IMG/VR virus record: IMGVR_UViG_3300020201_000001
Coordinates: 1 to 54,195 of that record
Direction: 5' to 3' (one strand)
DNA length: 54,195 bases
From: a virus
Taxonomy: Duplodnaviria; Caudoviricetes
The position numbers were made by a program, and so were the translations under genes. Below the pieces are notes generated by a model that was not told the DNA's origin, searched no databases, and saw only the letters and a list, made by a program, of their open reading frames with translations. This document shows, one piece after another, positions 15,079 to 44,527 of the stretch (its first letter is position 1; the number at the start of each line of letters is the position of its first letter).

Positions 15079-15079
15079 G

Positions 15080-29900: not shown

Positions 29901-30025
29901 AAGTCAATAAGACAATAAAAAACAATGATAGTTTTTTCAAGAAAGCAACAACAGGCAACCCACTGCCGATGAATGAAAAGGAAGGTAGTGAAGGTAGTGA
30001 AGGAGAAATCGAGGTAATTCGATAA
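17996..30025 (+). CDS. Giant 4009-aa virion protein; putative single-chain two-barrel (DPBB) RNA polymerase with a zincin-like domain
   Basis: VSRIP (R1998) followed by GMDFDKD (D2036-D2040, nt 24101-24115). Upstream IDGG (D1575), FKNA and TSLK motifs. EELTH (847-851) plus EEFVA (901). Confidence 0.75.
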   Translation: MSKNIVDLTPPISGRALVETIPIVPTRREMSNAKDEAMREQAFSKKLLFDDKSAEAVVTGKTMLNQPNINRDIPKTDNTRTKAIPQPKSKTKDIPGATKFDYVGQSKKDAEAKEMDIGYGDDKLDEARKIANTPMANQENGEIFYDIPKIQSARLALQGKIDELTASSGLTDSGKSQMFTQGAKDNGIIGKAMLPFVPIADTFENLQQNYLHPKREGAAPLTPDDPKYAQRKTEYQLEEYSKIMNNLTTQYNYAKTFPNGKVDFSPQRRVDEGVSSAAKSVVMGYVGDFANHFTDGGATKLMEKVFSTDVATGRALLQQELEKAKRLGGNKPDEIIPELGMTYNQFVTGWESVLTNTGLGIVNLVSSLAPGGSFSTAGAVANDVISIASKVVKSGANVVKEKLALRTATALATDKVVFDGIAKDIALKAVDPQWVQKTELFSPTIKNMIAKAPTDAARLEVVEFALKDQTYKVFKQVFAEAKLVGRALEQANMLKSAVGRVNGLGSLDQLSNILADIVSGTTATQSEVLGKIAVDSIRMYLTGLLNTGDAGSAENLATLGAYSSFFGTTMKKLSMTYLAKSDALRQAIAHGDSKLTNDLIAQYQKTSQLFAIIANDFGGGGAQTVDELRKLVGSEDIWKEIVKTAMPNFILAHGSFTSANRYMKERGQDVQNKKWGLEFNNVVAKGAPNVSDGFGGTAASIAAGKDIRGTVESTVNKAYHATAPGKQKVSMEKFIKDSANLSGISKNTGEMKVGELLNLLERWKKEGLLSKDFKVFDEANHVKILSGIPADTKVVFTQENKSNTESKAEYDATTNTINFHNFDFTGTAQNPIRPEEVFSTIAGLMSEELTHAATVHKIKANPEKIDALRQKYLDKFNAMYPPEVGLPADAGAIQYALSNNEEFVANLFNNLQSPHFFKFIKEADKAQNGTVKAFLDNVLDKFGLDGADQTLRKNISKIILDVLPEDSKELYTKPPPATKFTEEEIGEYASTLEPPTVYSGTDLITVANETAAKFNEQGSSVTPDEILPQSLLEALQVQHKIKEDQANTSGVYPGFFKESKDGTETLAFNEEVERWNSIHPIKITNAQAYHIVQSILGEQKFTPEIGIQVLKEMLNESRTEQASTVRQLIEEVESEAIQAERDFIEGKGKDDKSDLRAYKVLGYEKASELYAEHSAGANPTKTPAQVTADAYKAIMEGMNKQLKEQYGDKEIPTKELEKAEIIAKKESIKLSNSGMVTALDGERIPFSLMKGYHRALDGVRKQIGGGLTYDNKRILDAVLDIFAGLKPINKYNVGDGIQTGRYYRPAGVTDMAIVLDEKTPAQIRVMTQKLHQVIINHAVTSEAFYRGSKHDPAKVAKAARELMPFVNYKAVAEGKSNFNDLFVAKLTSKHYGKEYGDTDARLKKLQTEHSDVLQEVIDNLSSLYDNKGYNPHEGKDGPLTPDEATAFQNGLHGIMNLTLNPGGNDMIAKRITIDENGVIFRDPGKISAKYIKLVIDNNTFRMTDVANIGLYNPLLIKDGKVDAEYLAAEYPDLALLPDGNLAFKLINTEQFLPYLSPELKDWLSSVAGKDTQRIDGGIIAIGEMPGVKLLATAVGGGKNSAFFKGKGTGLFKNAIHNVAPSEVVHPDTPGYNSIKSFAEKITKAGIQIHDGTSLKNTAELYEYHRMPLPNMEGNLTALLDNSGTIVSILDNKGSNVTADAKEKVLKALAYELETTGKLPDQMITKQPITGEHALTLMTADKEGKHNAGGVVHPGIINLVPTGRLGFDVKPDVIAKYTQAISDLTENNFKHFSKQLDGVASIERMLVELSQGEHITGTKAELGALQNTVEGLEAMLNENPDILYRGVPGTKLLAEIDGLFKTDDLGKRLVLDKDQVESFLIDRFKLFTGKSTDISSPSSKKENWVTTDSILFDLAKRSYDSIQKLHAVNGSNSMSVSPNFGDSRFAIERLVGKGGMADELTKMFIDPKNGNIINMGIALPLKFIKDNNLQPGQSILVSRIPAHDTGSTTVMTLIGATDSHSTIHADSEYLTGSAGMDFDKDSLQILLPDPHILTKDIYKAMIDYIGDVTKDTSKLYPDIMKIDSTGELDRIYKELGLSHLLKDVSHSPLSRDAYNKGDNGTALAGAAVSLKKSIALIAAAYAATGEVKGDYRYVTAKRGDIKLVLKFPLKPDMMTAIANAAAQLGYDNFAGHHIKEEANILMPYLHSITFGEGKTHTGKDLGDEMVMRKIGSTVRELAHNVKMENAQGVDEPTHQFGTQGNNAARALVEHNMIQYGKRLKQLDETLKFLNMDRQIQTIINSNSIAIGKKLQLFNLMWHKNADSPELLGTLNYLRDAISTQFNSLGRKGEWKTGGVTKSVSSLLYYNDAFKHLPAAMMVSGARQLANGTEIRFGENIAIITSAKEVKLNGETVPFEQFLVKYGKEGTRKDAEALHILYYDQNINGKGKGGITYNRMQTTIDGLIAVVGRKVKNIDDYANLGDLRVGDDPNDVTLNTIKEIATRVFFGSDTPLIDNKQNFSLHNENGSGAEASRRALERAGIVPKVHGVSVADMARDEFKKTLATKEQPNDVHGAFAFGRASDQGSNIFDNPKTTYDELRKALVNHPEIANKPVTKWTAEDFRIAKPIIMAHAANKVRALKGTIMPSLWKQFFALASPKGSEIGKPWDSDPEHKHTQHVIDEIGELLDYDYLRNIESQETLKNGKALAQLQTLQMLPHAVQKLNDMMKAQGYNEVNNYTGTLDLNSQLTYSSYNQTFSDLDQDIGFTKTYGPNGFTESRVRAFSMNLNRRLGINLDKVHTTVQYKQFLHDAKNMSLIKDQINMFLGNYNNADKGYDVNQTLPVLSKILKSPTLKAMFDAVITPDYSVSTTNILAQGKLGGVHIDYNLPDAVQARKENVLKGLSKEIFNAFKKQQVNLVDGFDMEETQAAMNLGEITLADIKDALSMYTDQVLLNNTLSVGLDVISDSITNLINKNSQYADVASYTVIQEQLKATIESLRNPSDMAKWHTTQAVSTDMLNNTQTLIAEIGASSSAEIYEALVKTGKIPFKPDHEFEDEMGAKDDALKGLQQFLSGSKTNFKVNKRFNDGLVPDKERMEFSKEDVKNLMEALPLDRIKTVSTETQSMMDAETEMDALRAEEEARYAESMGIAVEAKTPQPTEALKPARTYIDTTAEVMYDAKSYKENLINHLQKTLLNVNTVSKNIFNDNYNESEFARAITNTLFSEYAGKEFTDDYVIKSTKTPDGLTRMFDDPDKEIPKGQYVEFLHADNNGIDSQHARYLGIVKRNVAIKDIEGNVTNVPKNLIVLLVDNGSRASISLVEEKDIKTMTAQMKVSRSGQKQEKVIKEFFDKNSNQLMEDIRTYVDTAAWEEGSKGRYKEVNLGHSAQPTTLFSQGTPLINMSRTSKDAEKTLLTTLNKYSTTIAYSLFGRGTQTATVGLALIGVSALTSLTPALGIGMIAAGAAQIGKRGFKLFVDGQVGSTGAAIQHDVFAKDFITQATNMFNHLWSPKTLNETTAIRAVTQVAIAAAIEEAGVEKDISKVDSFYLAQQAREEIKAYNRIENFIGDGLGSKVNDEGIAKLKEEYALKGMDVNFTKIGKDGYALKINDHSYQDMQKANKTYLDLMLNALHATGFQAKLEATSTEKAMAIATQVNRARQTKFKEIFGTDVSYSEAEVLNYIDYSTKTALGSFVKSAKQATPFGRFITQFQRYQREAAVDQYNLFKYRNELYTAVEDDILYWSAKAGAGDRKSQQLLDILEQVGLVSATDMTGSMSKLKNRAYALNTAAGLLSGGGKYLGVMALNQFNQILNGDDDDEEKGTGQLIGSAIGKEWLTERDQDMRPYSGIYQGGATGLTMATVLAGVYGMFKTAVDVKTDEDIDLRRHTKNLKLVEGLTAPLKYGLGMTAITALNTSLVAFYASILNHVDKGKGFTEKERTNPNYYLNFVMNKIAQASQMFPFAALATTYVNEQLKVNKTIKNNDSFFKKATTGNPLPMNEKEGSEGSEGEIEVIR

Positions 30026-30070
30026 GAAGGACTTTTAATTTCAATTATATTTTTTAACAATAGGAGTACT

Positions 30071-30427
30071 ATGTACATATTCAAACAATTCAAAGTGAAA
30101 ATGGGTGAGAACCAACGACAAGGTTTAATCACAGGCAACATATACAAAGTTTATGGAGCTAACCCTAACAGAGAACAATTCTTAGTCATAGATGAAGCTG
30201 GACACTTTGTTTTCGTAGATTTCCATAACACTACATTCGCAGGAGACGACATTGAAGTTACCATCGAAACCAACAATTGTTGCAAGTCAGTTGCTGGATC
30301 AGGAGAAGATACAGGACTTATTGAAACAGGCACGACAGAGGGAAGCCCAGAGATTGGACCAGATGAAGCAATCGCACCTAAGGCAACTGGCAGATTTGGC
30401 AGACCTATACAACCAAAAGGAAAGTGA
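30071..30427 (+). CDS. Hypothetical protein
   Basis: AGGAG RBS; small beta-rich N-terminus and disordered tail. Confidence 0.6.
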   Translation: MYIFKQFKVKMGENQRQGLITGNIYKVYGANPNREQFLVIDEAGHFVFVDFHNTTFAGDDIEVTIETNNCCKSVAGSGEDTGLIETGTTEGSPEIGPDEAIAPKATGRFGRPIQPKGK

Positions 30428-30440
30428 AATAGGATTGACA

Positions 30441-30728
30441 ATGTGGGAGCTGATATGGTTTATCCTTAAGCAACCTATTACAATCATTAAATTAGTAGTC
30501 AAAATACTCACAATCATAAATTCATTAAAGGATAGAACAATGAAAGATTTCAAAACAACAGCTCTAAGCATACTACAAGCATTGGTATTATTAGGCTCAT
30601 TGTTTGGCGTACAGGTAGCACCTGAATTACAAACAACAATCATTACGTTAGCAACGTCTGCTTATGCAGTACTTGGTGCAATAAAAGGTTTCTTCACCAA
30701 AGATAGCATACCACCAACGGCAGCGTAA
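30441..30728 (+). CDS. Putative holin (second in-frame start at 30540)
   Basis: Two hydrophobic helices after MKDFKTT and a charged end; AGGA precedes both ATGs; lies before the terminase. Confidence 0.6.
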   Translation: MWELIWFILKQPITIIKLVVKILTIINSLKDRTMKDFKTTALSILQALVLLGSLFGVQVAPELQTTIITLATSAYAVLGAIKGFFTKDSIPPTAA

Positions 30729-32602
30729 TGAATCAATACAATCTACAAACACTACTGGATAGAGTTGCAGATAATACACATAGCCCTAATGATATGAATT
30801 CGTTAGGGCTATTGTATTTTGCTAAGACACACTTTCCAGAGATATTCAGAAATGAATGGGCACCTCATCATTACGACATGTGTCAAATGTTCTTTGCATT
30901 GTTATCACCTAACCTAAAACGTAGAGACGAAAGATTAGCTTACTTCTTAGTACATAGAGAAGCAGCTAAAAGCACAGTAGGTACGTTCTTATTTCCTATC
31001 TTCAATATCTACTGCAAAGGTTTAAAGGTATGGACAAGGCATAACGCTTTAGGGTGGGAAGGTGCAGACATACATGATCATACGTATGAAGAAGTAACTA
31101 TAGGCGAAGACTTCATGGTAATAACGTCAGAAACGAGCGGACAGTCTGAAAGGTTCGTTAGTGATATAAAAGCTATAATAGAAGAAAGAGATGACTTAGC
31201 ATCTATCTATGGCGAAAAAAAAGGTAGTCTAATAGAGCTTGAACCTGGACAAAGACGTAAAGACCAAAAATGGACGCAAACAGCATTTCTTACATCAGAC
31301 AATACAGTTGTATTAGGTGCAGGTTCTGGACAACGTATTCGTGGACTAAAGATACGTGGACACAGACCTTCATTCATAATGATTGATGACATGTATTCTA
31401 GGCTTAATACTAAGACAATGCAAACAAGAGAGAACTTAAACAATTGGTTCTTTTCAGATCTACTTAAGAGTGCAGATAGTGAACGTGCTAAGATATTATG
31501 GTTGGGTACAATGGTACACCCTGATACAGTAGTTAAACGTTTCAGACAGACCACAGACTGGCATGGCATTGAACGTCCTATTATTTCGATAGATGAATTG
31601 CAAGTAGGTTTACAGAACTGCTTAGTCAATGGTGAGCCTGACAAACCATTGTGTAATACTTGGCAAAAAACAATGACTACATTATCATGGCCCGATAGAC
31701 ACACTTTGTATGACATACTAAAACTATACACAAACGATGCTTTGTTAGGACAACTGAATTACTTCTACCAAGAGTATATGAATGAATCATTAGCACCAGA
31801 GAACAAGCTAATTGATCATGAAGCATTTGTACGTACTAATATCACCTACGAAGAGGAAGGAGGTAAAAGCTATGTAACGTTCTTCTACGAGCATATAGAA
31901 TGGCGTGGTGAAGTTCTATTAAGCTTAGCATGTGACCCAGCGGCAAGTGCAAGTGAGAGAGCAGATGATACTGTGATTATGGTAGGTGGTTATGCACGTT
32001 GCTTCCCAAGAGCAGTAGGTACACCATACGAGTTACAAGAATTAGGTATGCCTAATGGACGTATATTCCCTATCCTACTACATATTGAAGGTGGTAAGTA
32101 TTCAACTTATGACTACAATGAAATGCCAGGTATATGTGAAGCTATCTTAGCTTTAGATAAGAGATACAAATTAGACATGATTAAGATCGAAGCTAACGGT
32201 CAACAAGCACAGATAGAACGTGAGGTACGTCGAAGTATGCTTGAAGGTATTTACAAGCAAGGAGAGGTGGTTAAAAGCTCATTTAGAAGCACACCAGTAT
32301 GGGCAGAGTATCAAACAAGTGATAAAAAAGAAAGAATTATAACCACAGTGTTGTCAATCGTACAAGCACACAAAGTATTTATTTGCAATGACAACAAGCA
32401 CATAGACAAACTATACCTACAGTTGATAGCTATTAGTTTAGCTGATCATGATGATTACGCAGATGCTTTAGCAATGGTATTTAAAGGTGCTAGCATACCA
32501 GCGGTCTATAACTTACACGTTTGGCAGAACGGAGAAGACCAAGTAGATAGAGTAGAACAATTAAAAGAAATTTATGGTATGGATTATTGGATGTACTTAT
32601 GA
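30728..32602 (+). CDS. terL: Terminase large subunit
   Basis: HREAAKST Walker A, IRG...RPSFIMIDD Walker B, LGT coupling motif, QEYMN, and RNase H-like CDPA, IEAN, HDDYADALA. Confidence 0.93.
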   Translation: MNQYNLQTLLDRVADNTHSPNDMNSLGLLYFAKTHFPEIFRNEWAPHHYDMCQMFFALLSPNLKRRDERLAYFLVHREAAKSTVGTFLFPIFNIYCKGLKVWTRHNALGWEGADIHDHTYEEVTIGEDFMVITSETSGQSERFVSDIKAIIEERDDLASIYGEKKGSLIELEPGQRRKDQKWTQTAFLTSDNTVVLGAGSGQRIRGLKIRGHRPSFIMIDDMYSRLNTKTMQTRENLNNWFFSDLLKSADSERAKILWLGTMVHPDTVVKRFRQTTDWHGIERPIISIDELQVGLQNCLVNGEPDKPLCNTWQKTMTTLSWPDRHTLYDILKLYTNDALLGQLNYFYQEYMNESLAPENKLIDHEAFVRTNITYEEEGGKSYVTFFYEHIEWRGEVLLSLACDPAASASERADDTVIMVGGYARCFPRAVGTPYELQELGMPNGRIFPILLHIEGGKYSTYDYNEMPGICEAILALDKRYKLDMIKIEANGQQAQIEREVRRSMLEGIYKQGEVVKSSFRSTPVWAEYQTSDKKERIITTVLSIVQAHKVFICNDNKHIDKLYLQLIAISLADHDDYADALAMVFKGASIPAVYNLHVWQNGEDQVDRVEQLKEIYGMDYWMYL

Positions 32603-33345
32603 GATTAGTTAAATGTATTCATAGAGGACAGGAACTAACGTCCAGGTGCTATGATAACCACAAAGACTTTATGAAAGATGCATATGTATATAACTATACG
32701 CTATGCGAGAAACGTACACCATGTGAAGGTGCTTATATACTCACCGACAATGGTTGGTATGTGCCTATACTGAAGGTAGTGATATTTGATAACCTAAAGA
32801 ATAACAAGAGCATGATTAGGTTCTATATCCCAAGGAGAGTATATACATTCTTCATTAACCACAATGATAAAGTAAGGCATAGTGCTTTTGTATTCTATCC
32901 AGATCAGAAGGTTTTATACAAGCTACCTAAAGCCCGTTATGTAGTTATTGCTATGTTAATGGAACAAGGTATGCCTATCTTTGAAGCAGTAGCGTATGCA
33001 TTCCCTAAGCACTCCGAGAAGAATAACCTAAGAGTAGTTACTACACTTATGAATGAAGAATCAATATTGAATTTAATTAAAGGACAAGCAATGAGTAGAC
33101 TTAAAGATGAAATGCTTAACCAAGGCATTAGTGCTGAATGGTATGTGAAACAATTGAAAGACATACTATCGGATACAAAGAGTAATCCTAACTTAAAGAA
33201 ATATGCTTTAGAGCAAATAGGTAGGACAATAGAACAAGAAGAAAAAAGAAATATTAATTATGTTGTAGGCTTACAGTTAGAAGCTAATGCACCTAAACAG
33301 TTACAGTCTAACCCACCACTTATGCTTGAAAAAAAAGAGAACTAA
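32599..33345 (+). CDS. Hypothetical protein, possibly terminase small subunit
   Basis: ATGA-coupled to terL; helical C-terminal half; function inferred from position only. Confidence 0.4.
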   Translation: MRLVKCIHRGQELTSRCYDNHKDFMKDAYVYNYTLCEKRTPCEGAYILTDNGWYVPILKVVIFDNLKNNKSMIRFYIPRRVYTFFINHNDKVRHSAFVFYPDQKVLYKLPKARYVVIAMLMEQGMPIFEAVAYAFPKHSEKNNLRVVTTLMNEESILNLIKGQAMSRLKDEMLNQGISAEWYVKQLKDILSDTKSNPNLKKYALEQIGRTIEQEEKRNINYVVGLQLEANAPKQLQSNPPLMLEKKEN

Positions 33346-33372
33346 ATACCTTATGTAGGCATTAGTTCTCTT
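33329..33372 (-). terminator. Terminator at the convergence of the late and leftward operons
   Basis: AAGAGAACTAA/TTAGTTCTCTT inverted repeat preceded by an A-run (U-tract on the minus strand). Confidence 0.65.
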
Positions 33373-33491
33373 ATAACAGTTTCTAAATATTTTATGTAAT
33401 CATACACGTCTTGTGTAGCCCTGCAATCTATACCACCACATTTATCAATAGGATAAACTGGTGGTATGATTTTAATGTCATTTATCTGCAT
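33351..33491 (-). CDS. 46-aa hypothetical protein (MQINDIKIIPPVYP...), not in the ORF track
   Basis: Translated by hand; overlaps the upstream gene end and fills the gap to the terminator. Confidence 0.45.
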   Translation of the reverse strand: MQINDIKIIPPVYPIDKCGGIDCRATQDVYDYIKYLETVIRELMPT

Positions 33492-33762
33492 ATCGTGACG
33501 TTAGCCAAAACTTCAAGGTCTTACGACCAAAGTATTCTATTAGTGCGTCAAATCCACCAGCATGAAAAAGCAATCCATCATCATAACTCTGCCAAGTCCA
33601 ACTTAATTTCTGGCATAGTATATCTTCATCAGGTGAGTAAATTAACACCCATTTCGATTGCATCTCATCCGTCCAGTCTACTTCCCAATTCGCACGTGCG
33701 TTTATTGAGCGTATCATAGCTCTAACTTCTTCATCCAATGCTTTCCATATCAAGTTACTCAT
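33478..33762 (-). CDS. FKFWLT-family paralog 1 (core module only)
   Basis: NWEVDWTDEMQSKW and LKFWLT motifs. Confidence 0.85.
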   Translation of the reverse strand: MSNLIWKALDEEVRAMIRSINARANWEVDWTDEMQSKWVLIYSPDEDILCQKLSWTWQSYDDGLLFHAGGFDALIEYFGRKTLKFWLTSRYADK

Positions 33763-34196
33763 AGTGTTCCCTCTTTAGTCAGCCAAAATTTGAACTCCTC
33801 TTGAGTGTAAAGTGTGCGTAGTATCTGTATTGTGTCGTAAGAGAAATACAAACTGTTGTCTTGTGATTGAAACCAGCTGGATACAATAACATCAAGGCAA
33901 CCAGCCCTTCTATTCCAAACTAAATAACATTTCCCTTGCTCATTATCATGCCAGTCTACCACCCAATTATCTTCTTTGCGAAGGATTGCAATTGAACGTA
34001 GGATTTTTGTATTTAATAAACGCCATTTATATTCCAAATCTGCTTCTTGTTTTGTTGCATAGTAATTGCCAGAATTGAAGCGAGCTATATCAGAATCATA
34101 ATTATTCCAAATACTTCTCCGCACCACATCAAGTATAGTCCAATACTTTGTGCCATCTTCAGGATATACTAATTCTTCGTCTGTTAATTTACTCAT
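33759..34196 (-). CDS. FKFWLT-family paralog 2
   Basis: VYP...RFNSGNYYAT, NWVVDW and EEFKFWLTKE motifs. Confidence 0.88.
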   Translation of the reverse strand: MSKLTDEELVYPEDGTKYWTILDVVRRSIWNNYDSDIARFNSGNYYATKQEADLEYKWRLLNTKILRSIAILRKEDNWVVDWHDNEQGKCYLVWNRRAGCLDVIVSSWFQSQDNSLYFSYDTIQILRTLYTQEEFKFWLTKEGTL

Positions 34197-34483
34197 AGTT
34201 CTCTCTTCCTAGTTATCCAAAATCTCAAGTTTGCATGACCAACGTATCCTCTTAGTTTTTCAAATCCACCTTCATAAAAATACAATGCATCATCATGATT
34301 TTGACTGGACCAACTCAATTGCTGAATTAGTTTACTCTCATCATGTGAGTAACATACGTTGCATTTTGTTTGCGTTCCATCTGTCCAGTCTATTTTCCAA
34401 TTCGCATTTCTGTTTAGTATACGTATATTTTCCCGTATTTCTTTATCCAATTCTTCCCATGTCCAATCCCAAATACTTATCAT
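34193..34483 (-). CDS. FKFWLT-family paralog 3 (core module only)
   Basis: NWKIDWTDGTQTK and LRFWIT motifs; closest to paralog 1. Confidence 0.85.
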   Translation of the reverse strand: MISIWDWTWEELDKEIRENIRILNRNANWKIDWTDGTQTKCNVCYSHDESKLIQQLSWSSQNHDDALYFYEGGFEKLRGYVGHANLRFWITRKREL

Positions 34484-34719
34484 TACGCTTCCTCATAATC
34501 ATGTAAGAAACTACATAACACTTCATGTATCTCAAGTTGAGCTGCATAAGCATCTTTCTCATTACTGAATACATAAGCTTCTCCTAAACATTCTTTCAAT
34601 GCAAACAATAACTGACTTTCATCTTCTACTGTAATTATTGCATAATCTCGTGTTATCACATATAACACACCTACTTGTTCTAACTTGACAAGCCATTGGT
34701 TAAATTTACTTAAACTCAT
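34483..34719 (-). CDS. Acidic hypothetical protein
   Basis: AGGA RBS; coupled to the downstream gene. Confidence 0.65.
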   Translation of the reverse strand: MSLSKFNQWLVKLEQVGVLYVITRDYAIITVEDESQLLFALKECLGEAYVFSNEKDAYAAQLEIHEVLCSFLHDYEEA

Positions 34720-34738
34720 TTCATTATCCTATTATTAT

Positions 34739-34768
34739 AAAAAAAGGTAAGCTACTTGCCTACCTTTT
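34739..34768 (-). terminator. Intrinsic terminator
   Basis: Minus strand AGGTAGGC-aagta-GCTTACCT followed by a T-run. Confidence 0.75.
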
Positions 34769-34776
34769 ATTCACTC

Positions 34777-35073
34777 TTAACTAATCAAGCTCAACCATTC
34801 AGGTGCTTCACTTAAACTAATTGCATCAACTATCTCTCCAGTCGCCTGTATCGTATGTTTCTTCACTGTCACTAATCTACCTGCAAATGTCTTTCCATCA
34901 TACTTAGATAGAAAGTTATATGCAGTCTGTCTGTTTGGATCTATCTCTAACTGTCTTTGAGATAAACTGATTGAACATTCTGTATTGATCTTATTCATAT
35001 ACAATGCTCCAGTTGATAACATACTGTCATATACAACTGTTTCTTCTGCCAATGTTAAATTACTCTTAGCCAT
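34777..35073 (-). CDS. Early hypothetical protein, paralog of 35819-36121
   Basis: Shares the S-G-L-x-x-N-K-x-N, AYxFL, TFAG and HT motifs and a terminal PxW; purine-rich RBS before ATG 35073. Confidence 0.8.
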   Translation of the reverse strand: MAKSNLTLAEETVVYDSMLSTGALYMNKINTECSISLSQRQLEIDPNRQTAYNFLSKYDGKTFAGRLVTVKKHTIQATGEIVDAISLSEAPEWLSLIS

Positions 35074-35120
35074 AACTCTTCCCTTAAATAAATACTTGCT
35101 ATCATACATCTTATGATAAT

Positions 35121-35170
35121 CAAATAAAAGAAAAGATCCCAGACACTACCACAAAAGCAAAGAGCGAAGC
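35121..35170 (-). promoter_or_regulatory. Leftward promoter-like element, inverted copy of 36716-36767
   Basis: Minus strand GCTTCGCTCTTTG-N12-TGTCTGGGATCTTTTCTTTTATTTG. Confidence 0.6.
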
Positions 35171-35244
35171 AGACCCACGTATACCTATTTGCCCCATTAA
35201 AGCCCCTCCCTTGCATTATTAACCCTAACCTATACATTTGTATC

Positions 35245-35495
35245 AAATATATACTTTATTCTGTCTCACGCTTGTTATATCACTACACTATACTCTCTAT
35301 ACACATACATACATATATTAATTATATATATATCATATACTTATATACTTATATAGTTATACTTATATATATATATATTATTATTATTATATATACTTAC
35401 TTATATACTTACTTACTTACTTATTCATATACTTATTAACATATATAAATATAATTAGTATATATAGATAATAATGATTATTAAAGAATATCAAA
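35245..35495. repeat. Very AT-rich low-complexity tract with TACTTA/TATA iterations; candidate DNA-unwinding element
   Basis: Non-coding, almost no G on the plus strand, repeated tatactta/tact units. Confidence 0.7.
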
Positions 35496-35519
35496 GTGCG
35501 TGCGTGCGTGCGTGCGTGC
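35496..35519. repeat. (GTGC)6 microsatellite
   Basis: Six perfect copies. Confidence 0.95.
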
Positions 35520-35557
35520 AATAATATTTAATACAAGATTCGGTGTTTATATCCATG

Positions 35558-35577
35558 TTATGCACAAGTTATCAACA
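35558..35577 (+). promoter_or_regulatory. Two tandem DnaA-box-like 9-mers
   Basis: TTATGCACA (fits TTWTNCACA) and TTATCAACA (one mismatch), 11 bp apart, next to the AT-rich tract. Confidence 0.45.
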
Positions 35578-35603
35578 CAACTAACCATCTAACCAAACAA
35601 TAC

Positions 35604-35632
35604 AAAAAAAGAGTAGCATTTCTGCCACTCTT
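35604..35632 (-). terminator. Intrinsic terminator
   Basis: Minus strand AGAGTGGCA-gaaa-TGCTACTCT followed by a T-run. Confidence 0.75.
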
Positions 35633-35634
35633 AG

Positions 35635-35739
35635 TTATTTAGATAATCCTTCTGCTACAATTATAGTAAGCAAGAAGAATATATACGATACACAAAACAG
35701 TAAGAAACCTAATTGTGCTTTGCTGAAATACTTTAACAT
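35635..35739 (-). CDS. 34-aa single-pass membrane peptide, not in the ORF track
   Basis: MLKYFSKAQLGFLLFCVSYIFFLLTIIVAEGLSK; GGAG RBS; terminator directly after the stop. Confidence 0.65.
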   Translation of the reverse strand: MLKYFSKAQLGFLLFCVSYIFFLLTIIVAEGLSK

Positions 35740-35775
35740 AATAACTCCATGAATAGAGATGAATAAAAACTTATC

Positions 35776-35813
35776 AAAAAAAAGAACAGATGCCAAAATG
35801 ACATCTGCTCTTT
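35776..35813 (-). terminator. Intrinsic terminator
   Basis: Minus strand AGAGCAGATGTCA-ttt-TGGCATCTGTTCT followed by a T-run. Confidence 0.8.
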
Positions 35814-35818
35814 AATAA

Positions 35819-36121
35819 TTATAAGCCTGCTGCTATCATCCAGTCAGGTTTAAAATCTGGATTGATTAACACAACTGCTTCACACTCTTCTTTAGTACTA
35901 TAGACAGTATGAGTTTTCTTAGTGACTGTATAGCCAGCAAAAGTTTCAAAACTACATAGGAAATCATAGGCTTTTTGCTTGCCAGGATTAAATTGCAAAG
36001 CAGGTTTGCTTAATGCAATGTACAGTTCGCCATTCGATTTGTTTTCGTTTAGCGTGCCGCTGCTTAATAACAACTGCAATACTTCTTCTTGTGATTTAGA
36101 CACAACTTGAGACTTAGACAT
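35819..36121 (-). CDS. Early hypothetical protein, paralog of 34777-35073
   Basis: GGAG RBS before ATG 36121; aligns along its length with the paralog. Confidence 0.8.
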   Translation of the reverse strand: MSKSQVVSKSQEEVLQLLLSSGTLNENKSNGELYIALSKPALQFNPGKQKAYDFLCSFETFAGYTVTKKTHTVYSTKEECEAVVLINPDFKPDWMIAAGL

Positions 36122-36172
36122 AAAAACTCCGTAAATAAATAAATAATGGAGCAACGATACATTCGCTACTCC

Positions 36173-36290
36173 CAATAAACAGATAGTAAGAGACCAGACA
36201 TTTGCATAGGTTCTATTCTATCAATAAACAGTAAAGATCCCAGACATTAGGATACTCTCTATATTCAATGAATAGCAAAGAGTCCAAACA
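36173..36290 (-). repeat. Three degenerate copies (about 45-bp period) of the TGTYTGG...TCTT...TTG motif
   Basis: Copies at 36173-36200, 36222-36246 and 36266-36290; related to 35121-35145 and 36742-36767. Confidence 0.65.
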
Positions 36291-36323
36291 ATAGCCCCCT
36301 CTATAGCGATAGCACGGGGTAGC

Positions 36324-36441
36324 ACGAGTATGTCATATTACGAAGTAATATGGCATACGAAGTGGCATCGCTATACAGTTGTACGTAGTGGGATGCACAA
36401 CGAGTACGTCATATTGCGAAGCAATATGGCTTACGAAGTGG
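36324..36441 (+). repeat. Two 42-bp hairpin repeats with c-GAA-g triloops
   Basis: 36324-36365 and 36400-36441 differ at 4 positions, two of them compensatory (ac-GAA-gt versus gc-GAA-gc). Confidence 0.85.
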
Positions 36442-36713
36442 GCTATGTGGTATAACGTAATACTGCCACTCCACTCCACATATCATTTTTAAATAGACCC
36501 TCCCTGATGAAGGACCCCCCCTACATAAACTTTTTTGTAAAAGTTCTCTGTGTACCCCCGCCAACATTTTGTGCTATTTTTTTTACATTATTTTTTAACG
36601 AAGGTATATGACTATGAGTAGGCAATAACATTCTAAGGCATTTTAAAGCCCGTGACAAGGTTTTAAATAGTTATGCAACAGTTTGTATGGCTTAGGATTA
36701 GGGGGTTCGTCTT

Positions 36714-36767
36714 GAGCTTCGCTCTTTGGGTTTGGTTTGTTTGTCTTGGGTTCTTTTCTTATTTTTG
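36714..36767 (+). promoter_or_regulatory. Rightward promoter region: template-strand GAGC-GAA-GCTC hairpin plus a Bacteroidota-type TTTG-N20-TAnnTTTG
   Basis: GAGCTTCGCTC at 36714-36724, TTTG at 36736-36739 and TATTTTTG at 36760-36767, upstream of the first rightward gene. Confidence 0.6.
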
Positions 36768-36799
36768 TAATTACACAAACTAATAGGAGTAAAAATGTA

Positions 36800-37372
36800 A
36801 TGAAGAAAGAACTAACGTTAACCGAGATAGTGGAGTTGTATTTGGCAAGCGGTGATACAGAAGAGTTTATGGCAAGGGTGAAGGATAGGATGAATGAGCC
36901 TGAACTTGAGCCTGAACCAGAATCTATACCTGAGCCTATTAATTATAGGGCAATGGTATATCCTAAAGTTGAGACACAGTATTGGTATATAGACCGTCGT
37001 AAAATTAAAGATTGTTTTTGGCTGAATGACGATGTTGACCAAGACCGCTTTCAAGACGGGAATTACTTTACCTCATGGAGCAAAGCAGAATTAGAATCTG
37101 ACTGGAGAATCTGGAACACACGAATTCTTAATACAATCGCTATACTAAACAAAGAAGATAATAATTGGGTGGCGGATTGGACAGATATAAGGCAAAATAA
37201 ATATACTCTTTGTTTATACGATGGCATTGATGCGTTTATTGCTGGAGTTTATAGTTCTTCACAATGTTGGAATAGCAATTGTTATTTGTCAGTTAAAGGG
37301 AAAGATAAACTACTTACGCTATACACACACACTGAACTCAAATTTTGGCTAACAAAGGAGAAATCACAATGA
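36800..37372 (+). CDS. FKFWLT-family paralog 4
   Basis: AGGAG RBS; NDRMNEP-type N module, VYP/GNYF module and core module. Confidence 0.88.
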   Translation: MKKELTLTEIVELYLASGDTEEFMARVKDRMNEPELEPEPESIPEPINYRAMVYPKVETQYWYIDRRKIKDCFWLNDDVDQDRFQDGNYFTSWSKAELESDWRIWNTRILNTIAILNKEDNNWVADWTDIRQNKYTLCLYDGIDAFIAGVYSSSQCWNSNCYLSVKGKDKLLTLYTHTELKFWLTKEKSQ

Positions 37373-37896
37373 AACAATTTACAAAAGAAGAATTATGCGA
37401 AATGATGTTATCGGGTGTTGATAATTTGCTTGCTATGATTAATGATAGAATGAATGAGCCTGAAGTAATTGCCCATAAAGCATTAGTATACCCTGAAAAT
37501 TGTACAGAGTATTGGTATCTAAACAGTTACATAGTTCAGAAAAGTTCTTGGGATAATGATGATATGGACGCAGTCCGTTTCGAGATAGGCAATTACTTTG
37601 CAACAGAAAAAGAAGCTGATGCAGAATGGGAATGGAGATTGCTGAACACGAAAATTCTAAACACAATTGCACTGTTAAACAAAGAAGAAAATTGGGTGGC
37701 GGATTTTAGTGACGGCAAGCAAGTCAAATGGTATTTATCTTACAGTGAGGATAATGGCAATGTTGAGAATGGTTGCTGTTATAGCAAACACTCCCACGAA
37801 AAGAATAAGTATTTTTCTCATAATGTCTGCATAAAATTACTTACTATTTACACAGAAGAAGAGTTCAAATTCTGGTTAACAAGGGAAAAGGCATAA
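37369..37896 (+). CDS. FKFWLT-family paralog 5
   Basis: All three modules; ATGA-coupled. Confidence 0.88.
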   Translation: MKQFTKEELCEMMLSGVDNLLAMINDRMNEPEVIAHKALVYPENCTEYWYLNSYIVQKSSWDNDDMDAVRFEIGNYFATEKEADAEWEWRLLNTKILNTIALLNKEENWVADFSDGKQVKWYLSYSEDNGNVENGCCYSKHSHEKNKYFSHNVCIKLLTIYTEEEFKFWLTREKA

Positions 37897-38333
37897 TGAA
37901 AAAGAAAAAAACGAATTACAAAAAATTAGTTTATCCGAAAGAACTGACAAAGTATTATTATGTAGATGGCGGTGCTTTTAGTGCCGGTTGGGACAATCAG
38001 ACTATAGACAAAGACCGTTTCAATTCGGGTAATTATTTCTCCACGTGGGAAGAAGCAAAATTAGAAAATGACTGGCAAAAGTTGAATACGAAAATTCTAC
38101 GTTCAATTGCAGACATTAATAAAGAAGAAGGTTGGGTGGCAGACTGGAGTGACTACCACCAAAGAAAATGGTATATATGTTTAGAGGCTTATCGTTGGCA
38201 ACCTGACACCGATTGCGTAAGTAGGCACCGACATTACGAAACTAATCGTTATTTATCAGACGATGGGATTGATGAACTATGGGAACTATACACAACAGAA
38301 GAGTTCAAATTTTGGTTAATTAAGGAGAAATAA
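37896..38333 (+). CDS. FKFWLT-family paralog 6
   Basis: VYP/GNYF and core modules. Confidence 0.88.
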   Translation: MKKKKTNYKKLVYPKELTKYYYVDGGAFSAGWDNQTIDKDRFNSGNYFSTWEEAKLENDWQKLNTKILRSIADINKEEGWVADWSDYHQRKWYICLEAYRWQPDTDCVSRHRHYETNRYLSDDGIDELWELYTTEEFKFWLIKEK

Positions 38334-38334
38334 A

Positions 38335-38742
38335 ATGAAACAATTTACAAGAGAAGAATTGTACTATTTGAGAATGATAAATGTTGATGAAGCACTTGTC
38401 ATAATGAATGAACGAGTTACAAAACCAGTTGAATACATTGAACGAGGTGACGATGATAGAGGTGTACGAGCTCGTGCTTGGTATGAGATAAACATAGAAA
38501 TACTTAATTCAATCGCTATGGGTAACGAACAAGACAATTGGGTTATTGATTGGAAAAATGACGCACAACCCAAACATTATATGTATTGGGATTGGAAAAC
38601 AGACAAACTTGGCAGGCTTAATGACTGTACATTCCAGTCACGTAGCAACGACCTTTATTTTTCTGCGGATACATACGACAAGGTAACAAAGCTACATGCA
38701 ATGGGAGAGTTCAAATTTTGGTTAACTGAAGGAAAAGGATAA
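38335..38742 (+). CDS. FKFWLT-family paralog 7
   Basis: MKQFTREEL N module and core module; lacks the GNYF module. Confidence 0.85.
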   Translation: MKQFTREELYYLRMINVDEALVIMNERVTKPVEYIERGDDDRGVRARAWYEINIEILNSIAMGNEQDNWVIDWKNDAQPKHYMYWDWKTDKLGRLNDCTFQSRSNDLYFSADTYDKVTKLHAMGEFKFWLTEGKG

Positions 38743-39299
38743 TGAAAGAATCAACAGAAGACCTCAAAGCTAAAGTATTAGAATTCAAAAAGCAAGAAGC
38801 AAAGTTGGAAAAAGAAATACTGGACAAAAGAGCTGTAATATTGGAATACGAAACGCACATACAGTCCGCAGAATATAAAACGGTGGTATATCCTAAAAAT
38901 CGCACAAAGTATTGGCATATATCCCACGCTTGTGTTGTGTACAGTAAATGGAGCGATACAATTACTGACAAAGACCGTTTCAATAAAGGTAATTACTTTG
39001 CAACTAAACAAGAAGCAGATTTGGCATACGAATGGCAAATATTGAATACGCAAATTCTCAACTCAATTGCAATGTTAAACGAAAAAGATCATTGGGTACT
39101 TGATAGGGAAGATCCCAATCAAAAGAGATGGTTTTTACGTTGGGATAACTGGGATGATTTCCTTTATGGCGAATGCGACGTTAACTCCCCACGTCGTGAG
39201 GATAATCATTATACGTCAAGGGCTGGGATTAAAATACTACGTACGCTACACACAGAAAAAGAATTCAAATTTTGGTTAACTAACAGGAAAAGATGGTGA
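38742..39299 (+). CDS. FKFWLT-family paralog 8
   Basis: Coiled-coil N-terminus, VYP/GNYF and core modules. Confidence 0.88.
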   Translation: MKESTEDLKAKVLEFKKQEAKLEKEILDKRAVILEYETHIQSAEYKTVVYPKNRTKYWHISHACVVYSKWSDTITDKDRFNKGNYFATKQEADLAYEWQILNTQILNSIAMLNEKDHWVLDREDPNQKRWFLRWDNWDDFLYGECDVNSPRREDNHYTSRAGIKILRTLHTEKEFKFWLTNRKRW

Positions 39300-39769
39300 A
39301 AGAATTAGATTCAACCTACAATCAATACATGTCTAAGTGGGAAAACTTTAAAGCAGGGGATAGTGATGAGTTTTACTTCCACGATAAAAAGACAAATCAA
39401 TTAGACTGTGTTGCAAGATTAAACGAAGATGATTGCTTTTTTAAGTTCAGTGGTGGTACATCAAATTTACTTGATGCCATAGCATACATTGAGGCAAACG
39501 GATCAACATCAGCAGAAAAACAAGAATACAATTTGGAGATAGATGTGAACGAAGAACCATTATCATTAGAGAAGTTTAAACTTAAAATCAAACGCTGGAA
39601 TAGTAGAGGCTTTATTGTGCAGTTCTTTTTAGCCAATGGTATGATTGTAGTTGCAAGACATAGACCGTATGGTATAGTAGAGTATAATGGAGCTTACCAA
39701 GCCTTTAACCAAATGACACCATTAGTTGAGGTATTGAAAACTCATTGGAGGAAAGATTGGGAAAAATAA
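39293..39769 (+). CDS. Hypothetical protein
   Basis: Coupled ORF in the early operon. Confidence 0.65.
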   Translation: MVKELDSTYNQYMSKWENFKAGDSDEFYFHDKKTNQLDCVARLNEDDCFFKFSGGTSNLLDAIAYIEANGSTSAEKQEYNLEIDVNEEPLSLEKFKLKIKRWNSRGFIVQFFLANGMIVVARHRPYGIVEYNGAYQAFNQMTPLVEVLKTHWRKDWEK

Positions 39770-39957
39770 TGTACACAGCAGAGTTAAAAGGAACGCTATT
39801 TGACTTTAGATCAGAACCGTGTGCAACAGAAGATGAAGCTGCGGCAATAGCTTTGGAAGTATTAGATGCGGCTGCATTATTATTGACACCAGAAGACTTT
39901 GCATTAATGAACTTAAAAGACAAGATTCAGCTTGTTAGTAGGAGTTACGTTGAGTAG
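39769..39957 (+). CDS. Small acidic hypothetical protein
   Basis: TAATG-coupled start. Confidence 0.55.
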   Translation: MYTAELKGTLFDFRSEPCATEDEAAAIALEVLDAAALLLTPEDFALMNLKDKIQLVSRSYVE

Positions 39958-40192
39958 GATTATCAAATATGTATGGCATAGGAAATATGGCGTAGGCGAA
40001 TTACTTGATGAACAAAAGTCCCGTATGCTTTGTCAAGTAGCATTCTTAAAACCACATAAGATTTATTTAATGAGTACGGAAACTGTGTATGGAATAGGAG
40101 ACTATGAAGATACAGATGAGAACAAAGAGTTAGCAATTAGGAAAGGTAAAAGATTTAAAAAACTATTAGGAGATGTTGAAGATGTTGACTAA
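39950..40192 (+). CDS. Small Tudor-like protein (YVWHRKYGVG)
   Basis: V-x-H-x-x-[FY]-G-x-G motif as in PcrA/UvrD C-terminal domains; AGGAG before TTG 39950. Confidence 0.5.
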   Translation: MSRIIKYVWHRKYGVGELLDEQKSRMLCQVAFLKPHKIYLMSTETVYGIGDYEDTDENKELAIRKGKRFKKLLGDVEDVD

Positions 40193-40661
40193 AATTAACA
40201 TAAGACTACCGGATGAATATGACGAAAATGACTGGATCACTGTAAAGTACATCATAGGTGAAAGCACGAGCTTACTTGTACTAACAAGTTGTAAGAACAA
40301 ACAAAGAGACCTTACCTTCACAGTAGGTGAATTGTTACCTGTTGAAACTAGTGCAGATTTAGTTAAGCAAGTAGTAGAGGCAGCGAATACAGTATTGCAG
40401 AATGGTAGATTAGCAGAGCTGACAGAGTATTTCAAAGCACAAGGATATGTTGATAGGATATGTGCCAGTAAAGCCATACAAGCTATGCTAAAATTATCGT
40501 ATATCAACATCATGAACTTCCCAGAGATACTTGACTGTACCTTCAGTAAGAATGACATGTTAGAGTATGCATCCTTTGTTAGTCAGAATCCAGATTATGA
40601 TTTGTATGATTACATTGATGTATATGAAAGAGTAAATTACAACAGGGCAGAACCATGGTAA
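40173..40661 (+). CDS. Hypothetical protein
   Basis: Overlapping ORF in the early operon. Confidence 0.65.
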   Translation: MLKMLTKINIRLPDEYDENDWITVKYIIGESTSLLVLTSCKNKQRDLTFTVGELLPVETSADLVKQVVEAANTVLQNGRLAELTEYFKAQGYVDRICASKAIQAMLKLSYINIMNFPEILDCTFSKNDMLEYASFVSQNPDYDLYDYIDVYERVNYNRAEPW

Positions 40662-41098
40662 ACAAAGAAAGTCTTTACAATAGAGTGTCAAGTAAATTCT
40701 GCCCTTATGGATCGTGGGACGTCGAAACAGCAATTGACCATTTAGAAACTGCTGGTTTAAACCCTGAAATACTTTACGACATTTGTGCTGATGCAGCAAT
40801 GAATTATGATGTGGTGATTGGGGACTTAGATTGTGTCGCAGAAGTTTATAGACATTTAACAAATATAGCGATTGATGAGTTGCAGTTGTGTACAGAGAAC
40901 TGGGGATGCCCAGAAGATGATTTAAATATTGCTGGTAATTATGTATGTACGTCTTTTGACGTTACAGATAAGACACTTGAAAAACTAAACGAACATTTAA
41001 ACCAGTTAGAAGATTTTGATATTGAAGCCATTAGCCCTGTCGTTAGGTGGCTTTTTGATGAGCTTGATTTTGAATACGAACCAAAGGAAACAGAATAA
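40655..41098 (+). CDS. Highly acidic hypothetical protein, distant paralog of 48658-49149
   Basis: D/E-rich; DLDCVAEVY...AIDELQL and RWLFDEL motifs. Confidence 0.7.
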   Translation: MVNKESLYNRVSSKFCPYGSWDVETAIDHLETAGLNPEILYDICADAAMNYDVVIGDLDCVAEVYRHLTNIAIDELQLCTENWGCPEDDLNIAGNYVCTSFDVTDKTLEKLNEHLNQLEDFDIEAISPVVRWLFDELDFEYEPKETE

Positions 41099-41454
41099 TG
41101 AAATTAATTAAAAAACAACGCAAAATAAAGATTAGAGATTTTAATGTTGCAATTGCTACTTTGACAAAGGCAAGCGAAAAAACCGAATGGAAGAAATTAA
41201 ATAAGAAAATAAAAAAGTCTATTGTTTCGCTTAACAGAGATTGTGCGTGGGTTGTGGATTGGGATAACCTAAAGGAAATGAAAAACCTTGTTATTTGGGA
41301 ACATACAGCAAAATCGACAATAATATTTACTTGCACTGATAAACAATTCGTTGACGATTCGTATTATATGTGTGGAACAGCCGCTAACGAACTTTGCACA
41401 TTATACACGCAAGAAGAGTTCAAATTTTGGATTACTAAGGAGCGAACAAAATGA
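41098..41454 (+). CDS. FKFWLT-family paralog 9
   Basis: Basic N-terminus; WVVDW and LYTQEEFKFWITKE. Confidence 0.85.
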   Translation: MKLIKKQRKIKIRDFNVAIATLTKASEKTEWKKLNKKIKKSIVSLNRDCAWVVDWDNLKEMKNLVIWEHTAKSTIIFTCTDKQFVDDSYYMCGTAANELCTLYTQEEFKFWITKERTK

Positions 41455-41993
41455 AAGAATTAACGATAGAAGAGATAAGCGAGTTATTCATTGCAAGCGG
41501 TGGTTCGGAAGCGTTTATGAAAAAGCTAAATGACAGAATGAATGAACCTGAACCAGTGCCTATTAATTATAAGGCGAGAGTATATCCAAATATGGAGATA
41601 GAGTATTGGTATATCGACCGTCGTCAAGTTGGGAGTTGTACTTGGGCTAATGACGGTGTTGACAAAGCCAGTTTCAATACAGGTAATTACTATGCTACTC
41701 AACAAGAAGCAGATTTGGAATTTGAATGGCGAATATTGAACACGAAAGTCCTTAACACAATCGCTATGTTGAATAAAGAAGAAAATTGGGTAGTGGATTG
41801 GGCAGATGGGAACCAAAGAAAATGGTATTTTGTTTGGGGTGAGACAGATAATGAACTTACATTTAATTGCATTTTTTGTAGACGCACCCAAGAAAACAAT
41901 AAATATCTTTGTGGTAGTGCAAGAAACAAACTACGTGAGCTTTACACAGATAAGCAATTCAAGTTTTGGATCACTAAGGAGAAAGGAAAATGA
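41451..41993 (+). CDS. FKFWLT-family paralog 10
   Basis: All three modules; N-terminus closest to paralog 4. Confidence 0.88.
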   Translation: MKELTIEEISELFIASGGSEAFMKKLNDRMNEPEPVPINYKARVYPNMEIEYWYIDRRQVGSCTWANDGVDKASFNTGNYYATQQEADLEFEWRILNTKVLNTIAMLNKEENWVVDWADGNQRKWYFVWGETDNELTFNCIFCRRTQENNKYLCGSARNKLRELYTDKQFKFWITKEKGK

Positions 41994-42759: not shown

Positions 42760-42913
42760 TAACAACGAAGAAAGTCCATACGTTTGGCATCAATCGTATG
42801 GCTTAGGCATGACAGTCGAAACGAAACAAAGCCAATGTTTAGTTCAGTTTATAAACGATCAAATTTGGTGTGACTTTGGAACATTAGAAGTCTTACCAAT
42901 AAGCGAAAGATGA
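42752..42913 (+). CDS. 53-aa Tudor-like protein (YVWHQSYGLG), not in the ORF track
   Basis: Translated by hand; AAGGAG upstream; ATGA-coupled to the next gene; similar to 39950-40192. Confidence 0.6.
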   Translation: MDNNNEESPYVWHQSYGLGMTVETKQSQCLVQFINDQIWCDFGTLEVLPISER

Positions 42914-43248: not shown

Positions 43249-43249
43249 T

Positions 43250-43405: not shown

Positions 43406-43406
43406 A

Positions 43407-43838: not shown

Positions 43839-43840
43839 CA

Positions 43841-44518: not shown

Positions 44519-44527
44519 AGGCAAACA

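Follow-up and report, generated by a model that had tools for sequence, protein, structure and literature searches.

Small DNA hairpins serve as early promoters in coliphage N4, where the injected, T7-like virion polymerase gp50 reads them and transcription is insensitive to rifampicin. In the N4 record, the heptamer GCGAAGC (promoter P1) or GCGGAGC (P2 and P3) lies on the template strand inside inverted repeats of 5–7 bp, with CCATAAG or CCAAAAG preceding it on that strand, and the promoters stand 24–61 nt before gp1, gp2 and gp15. The promoter needs a closing G:C pair, a loop that starts with G and ends with A, a purine at −11, G at −10 and −8, C at +1, and an A-tract that acts as a ruler; transcription starts at a template C ∼11 nt from the loop centre, and the hairpins, whose extrusion had been unexpected, are extruded by supercoiling with the aid of a single-strand binding protein (PMC4496689). 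GCGAAGC has a melting temperature of 76.5°C, its C-GAA-G core is the archetypal DNA hairpin loop, and the N4 promoter is among the natural contexts of such mini-hairpins (PMC13037366). Here we describe a 1.7-kb control region (around 35121–36767) in the genome of an uncultured phage (Duplodnaviria; Caudoviricetes), in which a 13-mer containing GCGAAGC occurs as two inverted copies, each followed by a T-rich box, with two longer C-GAA-G hairpins between them. The window analysed is the whole IMG/VR record IMGVR_UViG_3300020201_000001, of 54,195 bp.

Other phage polymerases provide further points of comparison. In vitro, gp66, the giant virion RNA polymerase of the crAss-like phage phi14:2 (PDB 6VR4), accepts single-stranded or denatured DNA as template and duplex DNA barely, and the portion of the bioRxiv version used here gives no common upstream motif for the early transcripts. 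In Thermus phage P23-45, gp96 is a two-barrel virion polymerase fused into a giant (tape-measure) virion protein; its pre-early promoters are described as a linear AT-rich motif, with no hairpin reported in the part of the source covered. The AR9 enzyme also belongs to the two-barrel class and reads the template strand of its promoters, but it is a non-virion, multisubunit polymerase and its motif is linear and contains uracil. In a literature search at title and abstract level, no paper described a two-barrel virion polymerase with hairpin promoters. For the question of how injected crAss-like polymerases recognise their start sites, the present phage offers a compact case: its genome is small, it has a single control region, and the N4 heptamer occurs in two matched predicted promoter copies.

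Priming sites are an equally well-documented setting for mini-hairpins, among them the complementary-strand origins of phages G4, St-1 and alpha3, and ssiA of RSF1010 with its RepB' primase (PMC13037366). There, mini-hairpins of the GCGAAAGC or CCGAAGG type sit inside larger one-strand hairpins and mark the start sites of RNA primers.

Anatomy of the control region

The 13-mer CAAAGAGCGAAGC, which we call box A, is found on the plus strand at 35158–35170 and on the minus strand at 36716–36728, with GCGAAGC at 35164–35170 and 36716–36722, respectively. These two inverted copies are the only matches in the record at ≤1 mismatch, and the reversed pattern, used as a control, has none. The leftward genes are transcribed from the plus strand as template and the rightward genes from the minus strand, so that both heptamers lie on the template strand of the adjacent outward block. 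In the left copy the stem has 2 bp only (GC/GC). Three extra bases in the right copy bring it to 4 bp, as GAGC-GAA-GCTC (36714–36724, minus strand). An A-rich tract, CAAAGA, lies 5' of the heptamer on the template strand, and the stretch of identity between the two 13-mers closes, in either copy, with a template C at a distance of 9 nt from the loop centre.

Each box A is followed by a T-rich element, box B, with the consensus TGTCT(T)GGG(A/T)TCTTT. The left copy (35121–35148, minus strand; sense TAGTGTCTGGGATCTTTTCTTTTATTTG) includes TGTCTGGGATCTTTTCTT at 35145–35128, 12 nt downstream of box A, and forms the core of a predicted leftward early promoter, P_L. The right copy (36740–36767, plus strand; TTTGTCTTGGGTTCTTTTCTTATTTTTG) includes TGTCTTGGGTTCTTTTCTT at 36742–36760, 13 nt downstream of box A, and forms the core of a predicted rightward early promoter, P_R, ahead of gene R1, which starts at 36800. 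The positions and strands of box A, its longer right-hand stem and the spacing to the T-rich sequence are as the first-pass annotation of this DNA had given them.

The similarity of the two ends extends beyond the boxes. When the whole left flank was aligned with the reverse complement of the right flank, the alignment ran over ∼130 nt with a score of 34, compared with 20.3 ± 2.5 (maximum 28) for shuffled sequences, none of 200 reaching 34. These data indicate that the outer elements are diverged inverted copies of one segment, within which box A and box B have changed very little. Taken by itself, an exact inverted repeat of 13 nt is less unusual, being reached in 9 of 200 shuffles.

Box B also heads a third early unit. 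The predicted promoter region of gene M1, P_M (36187–36290, minus strand), consists of three tandem units of ∼46 nt, each made of box B or a variant (36277–36290; 36233–36246, exact; 36187–36200) followed by TGAATATAGAGAGTATCCTA-like sequence. P_M has no GCGAAGC; the equivalent of box A before the exact box B is GGACTCTTTGCTA, at a distance of 31 nt rather than 12–13 nt. Box B thus heads all three early units and box A two of them, and the earlier claim that a hairpin precedes each outward operon applies to the heads of the two outward units, the M1 unit having box B without the heptamer.

M1 (35819–36121, minus strand) and the first leftward gene, L1 (34777–35109, minus strand), encode paralogs (38% identity over 97 aa, E = 7e-20) without any match in Pfam or PHROGs. 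Alignment with M1 suggests that the true start of L1 is the ATG at 35073. A terminator-like hairpin follows each gene (34768–34742 and 35813–35781), and such hairpins are frequent in the region (nine, versus 1.5 in shuffled sequence). Since each paralog has its own box B and terminator, a promoter–gene cassette appears to have been duplicated without the heptamer. Directly 3' of the P_L box B, a palindrome, TATCATA-CATCT-TATGATA (35100–35118), overlaps the first in-frame ATG of L1.

Long hairpin units and clustering of the CGAAG core

Between the outer boxes lie two 42-nt direct repeats, 76 nt apart on the plus strand. Each contains a perfect 8-bp stem closed by a GAA loop. In unit 1 (36324–36365) the arms are 36334–36341 and 36345–36352, with the loop at 36342–36344. 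In unit 2 (36400–36441) they are 36410–36417 and 36421–36428, with the loop (36418–36420) inside a further GCGAAGC at 36416–36422. ACGAAGT follows both hairpins, at 36357 and 36433. The stems can be extended to 36328–36358 (14 pairs, one of them T.G) and to 36404–36434 (with one T.G and one C.T), which confirms the longer plus-strand hairpins of the first-pass annotation with these imperfections. Adjoining the closing pair is A–T in unit 1 and G–C in unit 2, in the window and in the strain variant described below alike. Folded as DNA, unit 1 reaches −10.4 kcal/mol on the plus strand, a value matched by none of 200 shuffles, versus −7.4 kcal/mol on the minus strand; its T.G pair is tolerated on the plus strand only. 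The absence of a T-run after the hairpin on either strand argues against an intrinsic terminator. As in the known priming signals, a mini-hairpin sits here inside a larger one-strand hairpin.

All four elements, the two boxes A and the two units, share the loop type of N4: C-GAA-G, with 5' G, 3' A, a central purine and a C–G closing pair. In all four, the strand with the GNA loop is also the template strand, provided that the long hairpins, which lie 90–170 nt upstream of the box B array of M1, are assigned to this leftward gene. The strand rule proposed earlier is formally true on that assignment, and it counts two independent events only, one inverted and one tandem duplication.

To judge how unusual these motifs are, we compared their numbers with expectation. 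GCGAAGC alone is unremarkable, with four copies in the window versus 2.11 expected (15 of 100 shuffles reach four), the fourth of them (49314) inside a small open reading frame (ORF). The broader class of N-CGAAG-N' heptamers with complementary ends, by comparison, is clustered: 6 of the 14 in the genome fall within 35110–36800, where 0.44 are expected, and only 3 of 1048 sliding windows, all overlapping the control region, hold six. One caveat here is that this clustering test is post hoc and that the six copies go back to roughly two duplications. The genome as a whole has three triloop stems of ≥8 bp, two of them the hairpin units, against 1.04 in shuffles. The concentration of one CGAAG core in promoter boxes and hairpin units alike suggests a selected signal at the DNA level rather than chance.

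Conservation among strain variants and relatives

We then compared the region with strain variants, namely contigs from three other microbial-mat runs and the IMG/VR contig G003, at 94–99% identity. The run contigs have 25 further differences beyond those listed. Among the differences listed, none falls in 35110–35174, which holds the left box B and box A, while the next 80 nt contain at least four. Unit 1 (36323–36376) is likewise unchanged among the listed differences, with at least 11 in the neighbouring 36282–36305 and at least eight in 36377–36407, and it is identical in G003. In the P_R region, run X4 has no listed difference across 36618–36804 and run X3 has one across 36603–36804. The flanks of these kept elements differ at 5–10% of sites. 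In unit 2, positions 36407 and 36431 change jointly in the variants, to T and A; the C.T mismatch of the window thereby becomes a pair and the stem is completed. G003 (L022, ∼800–1130) has more box B units before M1, matching an insertion of ∼190 nt in runs X2–X4.

Conservation ends abruptly at the right-hand edge. Four bases inside the first rightward gene (36800–37372 onward), at 36804, the variants begin to diverge fully, and the 200 nt upstream are identical. It looks, from these sequences, as though the promoter is fixed and the first rightward gene exchanged, early genes being swapped as cassettes. We also considered that the segment between the inverted boxes might be invertible and dropped the idea: three runs cross the right junction in a single orientation, no strand-changing joints were reported, and the left junction is unbridged.

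Beyond the strain level, we did not find the arrangement. The genome of G002, the only distant relative with a control region, follows the same plan in mirror image. Its control region of 0.95 kb contains AT-rich repeats and four AAATTAGCCC iterons; apart from AT-rich repeats, no sequence is shared with the present region, and G002 has a single ACCC-GCA-GGGT there and no paired heptamer arrangement. In the first 85 kb of phi14:2 we found one C-GNA-G hairpin of ≥4 bp, inside a gene, and no clustering; GCGNAGC is scattered in crAss001 (n = 3) and phi14:2 (n = 4), each ∼100 kb. The conservation that the first-pass annotation proposed as a check is seen in strain variants and not in these phages. 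Also present in the G002 region (38760–39690) are ATACTACTA repeats, a tandem pair of ATTTCCGCAAAAAATGCGGA hairpins and two hairpins rich in G/C, after each of which stands GGTA(C/G)CATCAAAAAA.

A giant protein with a predicted polymerase barrel

The gene at 17996–30025 (plus strand) encodes a protein of 4009 aa, a candidate for an injected two-barrel RNA polymerase, with the sequence SRIP...GMDFDKD and aspartates at 2036, 2038 and 2040. It has no sequence match in Pfam, PHROGs or the PDB, and no tblastn match in GenBank phages (E ≤ 1). Queried with 1151 aa from the centre of the protein, a full HMMER search across 1.84 billion representative proteins returned one relative, P0002 (4250 aa, E = 5.8e-34), so that the lineage is nearly unsampled on this measure. 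IMG/VR added G001 (4483 aa, 17346–30794) and G002 (5274 aa, 45665–56753 joined to 1–4733). The proteins of this family span 4009–5274 aa, and the genomes are 54–57 kb with the same gene order. All four members have an invariant R-x-P...G-x-D-x-D-K-D motif, arranged as L..G....R.P, ∼35 residues, and then G.D.DKD.

Several lines of evidence connect this motif with gp66. An hhalign comparison of the family with phi14:2 gp66 places the catalytic stretch, R-I-P...G-x-D-F-D-x-D, on gp66 1317–1392 (DFDID), with 32% identity over 73 columns; the pairing is weak (pairwise E = 0.0035, probability 9%), and phmmer gives the same one. A 182-aa model around the motif has a pLDDT of 67–81 in its core and 58 overall. 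Foldseek relates this model to double-psi beta-barrels, including the p97 N domain, designed and archaeal barrels and P23-45 gp96 (rank 31, E = 0.09), all at E ≥ 0.008. The catalytic D-x-D-x-D loop thus lies in a modelled double-psi beta-barrel with R-x-P ∼38 residues upstream. On the strength of the motif, the weak profile match and the modest fold model, the giant protein probably carries a gp66-type catalytic barrel.

The two-barrel assignment made earlier is likely, although it is the catalytic part of it that the motif, the gp66 match and the barrel model support; for the second barrel and the overall fold, an 801-aa model has a pLDDT of only 32 and a profile search of PDB sequences was empty. 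Among the ESM Atlas clusters that carry a family name, the nearest is that of QDE-1-type RNA-dependent RNA polymerases (PF05183, 0.83), a lead only. Likeness to N4 gp50 was limited to weak, unrelated stretches in a phmmer search of the four giant proteins (E = 0.03–0.08, two-sequence search). The position of the giant gene among the structural genes, as for gp66, suggests that its product is packaged into the virion. The phage differs from phi14:2 in genome size (54 kb versus ∼100 kb), and the giant protein has only three detectable relatives.

An AT-rich tract beside the hairpin units

About 800 nt from the hairpin units lies an AT-rich repeat region (35290–35580), made up of a tract at 35290–35480, (GTGC)6 at 35496–35519, and the DnaA-box consensus TTATNCACA, exact at 35558–35566 and with one mismatch at 35569–35577. 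All Logan contigs, from four runs, break within 35293–35526. We regard 35290–35580 as a candidate unwinding or origin region, or else a physical end of the genome.

Readings of the control region

The reading that we tentatively favour, short of calling it probable, takes the 1.7-kb stretch as a divergent early control region with duplex promoters centred on box B. The inverted ∼130-nt copies (35065–35187 and 36693–36822) would be the leftward and rightward early promoters, with a common core formed by box B (TGTCTGGGATCTTT, a T-run, TTG and an A/T-rich hexamer) and read as duplex DNA by a host enzyme or by the injected giant polymerase. The same core, as a tandem array of strain-variable copy number, would also drive M1. 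GCGAAGC would belong to an upstream accessory element, box A, ∼45–60 nt before the likely start, where hairpin extrusion would not be required. The two 42-nt units would be a separate, strand-biased and cruciform-prone element adjoining the AT-rich tract, most likely an origin-associated single-strand signal, such as a priming or initiator site, or else a regulatory site. All functions assigned to these elements here are predictions.

We favour box B as the promoter core because it heads every early unit, M1 included, and because its units are tandem and more numerous in G003. Duplex rather than hairpin recognition is suggested by the stems of 2 and 4 bp at P_L and P_R, short of the 5–7 bp of N4, and by the other two-barrel systems: P23-45 uses a linear AT-rich motif, closer to box B than to box A, and phi14:2 shows no common motif. 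The long hairpins, read as a separate element, are islands of conservation among the variants, with one pair A–T in one unit and G–C in the other. An origin-type role is favoured by the occurrence of mini-hairpins at known priming sites and by the AT-rich tract with its exact TTATNCACA. The likeness to priming signals lies in the strand bias of the units and the nearby AT-rich tract, whereas the known signals act on single-stranded replication intermediates. The present phage is double-stranded, the ORFs scanned revealed no primase, and the two outer heptamers have the orientation suited to outward transcription. An outward transcript from a template-strand hairpin would also be a leading-strand primer, so transcription-primed replication is possible whether the promoters are read as duplex or as hairpins.

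Several results weigh against this interpretation. GCGAAGC, of all mini-hairpin heptamers the most stable, falls within the 13 nt that the promoter copies conserve best, and its CGAAG core recurs in the hairpin units; purely duplex promoters would leave both points as a coincidence. In a sigma-70 scan of 33300–37300 for −35 and −10 hexamers 16–18 nt apart, none of the 22 sites found (19.8 expected by chance) falls at a box B. A TG-n-TAnnAT reading of box B was made by eye only and fits well just at P_M (TG-n-TAGAAT). As to an origin, TTATNCACA-like sites show no excess across the genome (79 versus 96.6 expected), the GC skew tracks gene direction and gives no independent sign of one, and no primase was found in 37 ORFs scanned against PHROGs.

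The best surviving alternative, which we consider rather unlikely, is that template-strand C-GAA-G mini-hairpins are the recognition or entry sites of an injected gp66-type polymerase, convergent with N4, as the first-pass annotation had proposed. Box A would then run from ∼−12 to +1, and transcripts would begin at the terminal G of the 13-mer; box B would fall in the leader or act as an additional promoter used later, and the long hairpins would serve M1 or prime replication by transcription. The locus does resemble N4 in many respects: GCG(A/G)AGC with a 3-nt G-N-A loop closed by C–G, identical to the heptamer of P1; few copies, placed on the template strand before the first genes, 24–91 nt ahead of the first start codon; and an A-rich tract 5' of the heptamer (CAAAGA, compared with CCATAAG or CCAAAAG). 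Exact conservation ends at a template C, so that RNA would start with G. Clustered heptamers, the better plus-strand fold of unit 1 with its strand-specific T.G tolerance, the lengthened right-hand stem, and the position of hairpin elements upstream of box B elements on the template strand in every unit all fit this model. So does the giant protein, which matches the catalytic stretch of gp66 and models as a double-psi barrel, since the activity of gp66 on single-stranded rather than duplex DNA would suit a hairpin signal.

One thing that speaks against hairpin promoters is their lack of uniformity. The stems measure 2, 4 and 8–14 bp, the longest of them in separate units, and the distances to box B are 12–13 nt at the outer promoters and 90–170 nt at the units. 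Extrusion from duplex DNA seems unlikely at the left copy, judging from PMC4496689. P_M has no heptamer at all. The strand rule, the heptamer and the clustering stand, though the strand rule rests on the two duplication events mentioned above. Further differences from N4 are the conserved T-rich box downstream of the heptamer, the divergent arrangement (the N4 trio points in one direction), and a polymerase of the gp66 type, unrelated to gp50. The comparison phages offer no help, as hairpins are unclustered in phi14:2 and crAss001 and G002 lacks the paired arrangement; P23-45 gp96 uses a linear motif, phi14:2 early transcripts show no common one, and mini-hairpins are as well known at priming sites.

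Still more doubtful is the wider claim that the gp66-type lineage independently reached the N4 solution, with template-strand d(C-GAA-G) start signals, for a polymerase unable to open duplex DNA, that possibly double as replication primers. Should the hairpins turn out to initiate transcription, one DNA structure would have been adopted independently by polymerases of two unrelated folds, and this would be the first defined promoter of a crAss-type virion polymerase; the two longer hairpins should extrude easily. Otherwise, the region would be a clear case of an early-promoter cassette that was duplicated, next to a structured element with a probable link to an origin. Under the duplex-promoter reading that we favour, these are known kinds of element, early promoters and mini-hairpin DNA signals, in a nearly unsampled lineage.

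It is improbable, in our view, that the palindromes and CGAAG repeats are duplex sites, operators or iterons, of a phage regulator or initiator that links early transcription with replication or with a switch. Half-sites would be those at 36341, 36358, 36417 and 36434, plus one per outer promoter. The spacing of the (T)RCGAAGY direct repeats (17, 59 and 17 nt), the two perfect 8 + 8 palindromes 76 nt apart, the same core at both outer promoters, the variable-number tandem units nearby and the four iterons in the corresponding G002 region would all suit such a protein. No DNA-binding domain, however, was found in 8 early proteins scanned against Pfam or 10 scanned against PHROGs. Moreover, both the A–T/G–C difference between the units and the paired change at 36407/36431 concern pairing rather than sequence, and C-GAA-G is the archetypal hairpin loop of DNA (PMC13037366). 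Least plausible is that the elements have no function of their own, the heptamer having hitchhiked on the inverted promoter duplication and the long hairpins being a tandem-duplicated chance palindrome or an RNA-level structure: the ordinary count of GCGAAGC, the shuffles that reach the 13-nt inverted repeat, the descent of the six heptamers from about two duplications and the absence of an Rfam match above threshold would allow it, but box A, unit 1 and P_R are essentially unchanged among the listed differences while the strain flanks vary, long triloop stems are in excess and two of the three are the units, the difference between the units is compensatory, and the missing T-run speaks against a terminator.

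Genome plan, searches and minor observations

The record has a terminal overlap of 127 bp and a G+C content of 37%, and the runs that contain it are microbial-mat metagenomes. Nearly all genes lie on the plus strand, the exceptions being the leftward block 33759–35109 and the gene at 35819–36121; the region studied is the gene-poor stretch that separates the leftward from the rightward block. PHROGs matches comprise a portal, major head protein, endolysin, tail-fibre-like protein, DnaB-like helicase and exonuclease, and tblastn identifies a distant large terminase at 30728–32602. No tRNA was found.

Searches for the locus elsewhere gave little. Rfam (E ≤ 1) had nothing at the hairpins and three sub-threshold small-RNA or leader matches at 35598–35898, and a distant DNA search of GenBank phages with 35000–37000 had no match. 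Terminase searches with a single sequence and with alignment A1 in IMG/VR and JGI metagenomes returned only an identical 6.1-kb fragment and the 35-kb fragment G001, which lacks the control region because it stops 1.9 kb beyond the terminase. Alignment A2 found G002 in IMG/VR and no match in GTDB genomes. The pattern of box A, N8–20 and TGTCT occurs in nine IMG/VR stretches, two of them strain variants of the present phage; we discarded the other seven, which look like chance matches and have no box B following.

Promoters of the Bacteroidota type (TTTG-N17–22-TAnnTTTG) were dropped as candidates, and with them this interpretation of the TAnnTTTG boxes named in the first-pass annotation. There is one plus-strand match in the genome, at P_R, and six on the minus strand inside genes; ribosome sites of the GGAG type also argue against a Bacteroidota-type host. 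Sigma-70-like matches are fewer than in shuffled sequence, both in 36700–54195 (49 versus 67.3 ± 8.5) and in 1–18000 (44 versus 59.1 ± 7.8), and strong terminator-like sites are scarce on the plus strand, the clearest being at 2417–2438 and 50669–50688. This scarcity of both kinds of site suggests that the 51-kb rightward array may consist of a few very long transcription units. Finally, a hydrophobic ORF of 34 aa (MLKYF...; 35635–35739, minus strand) lies between the terminator-like hairpins at 35813–35781 and 35632–35609 and may encode a small membrane peptide.

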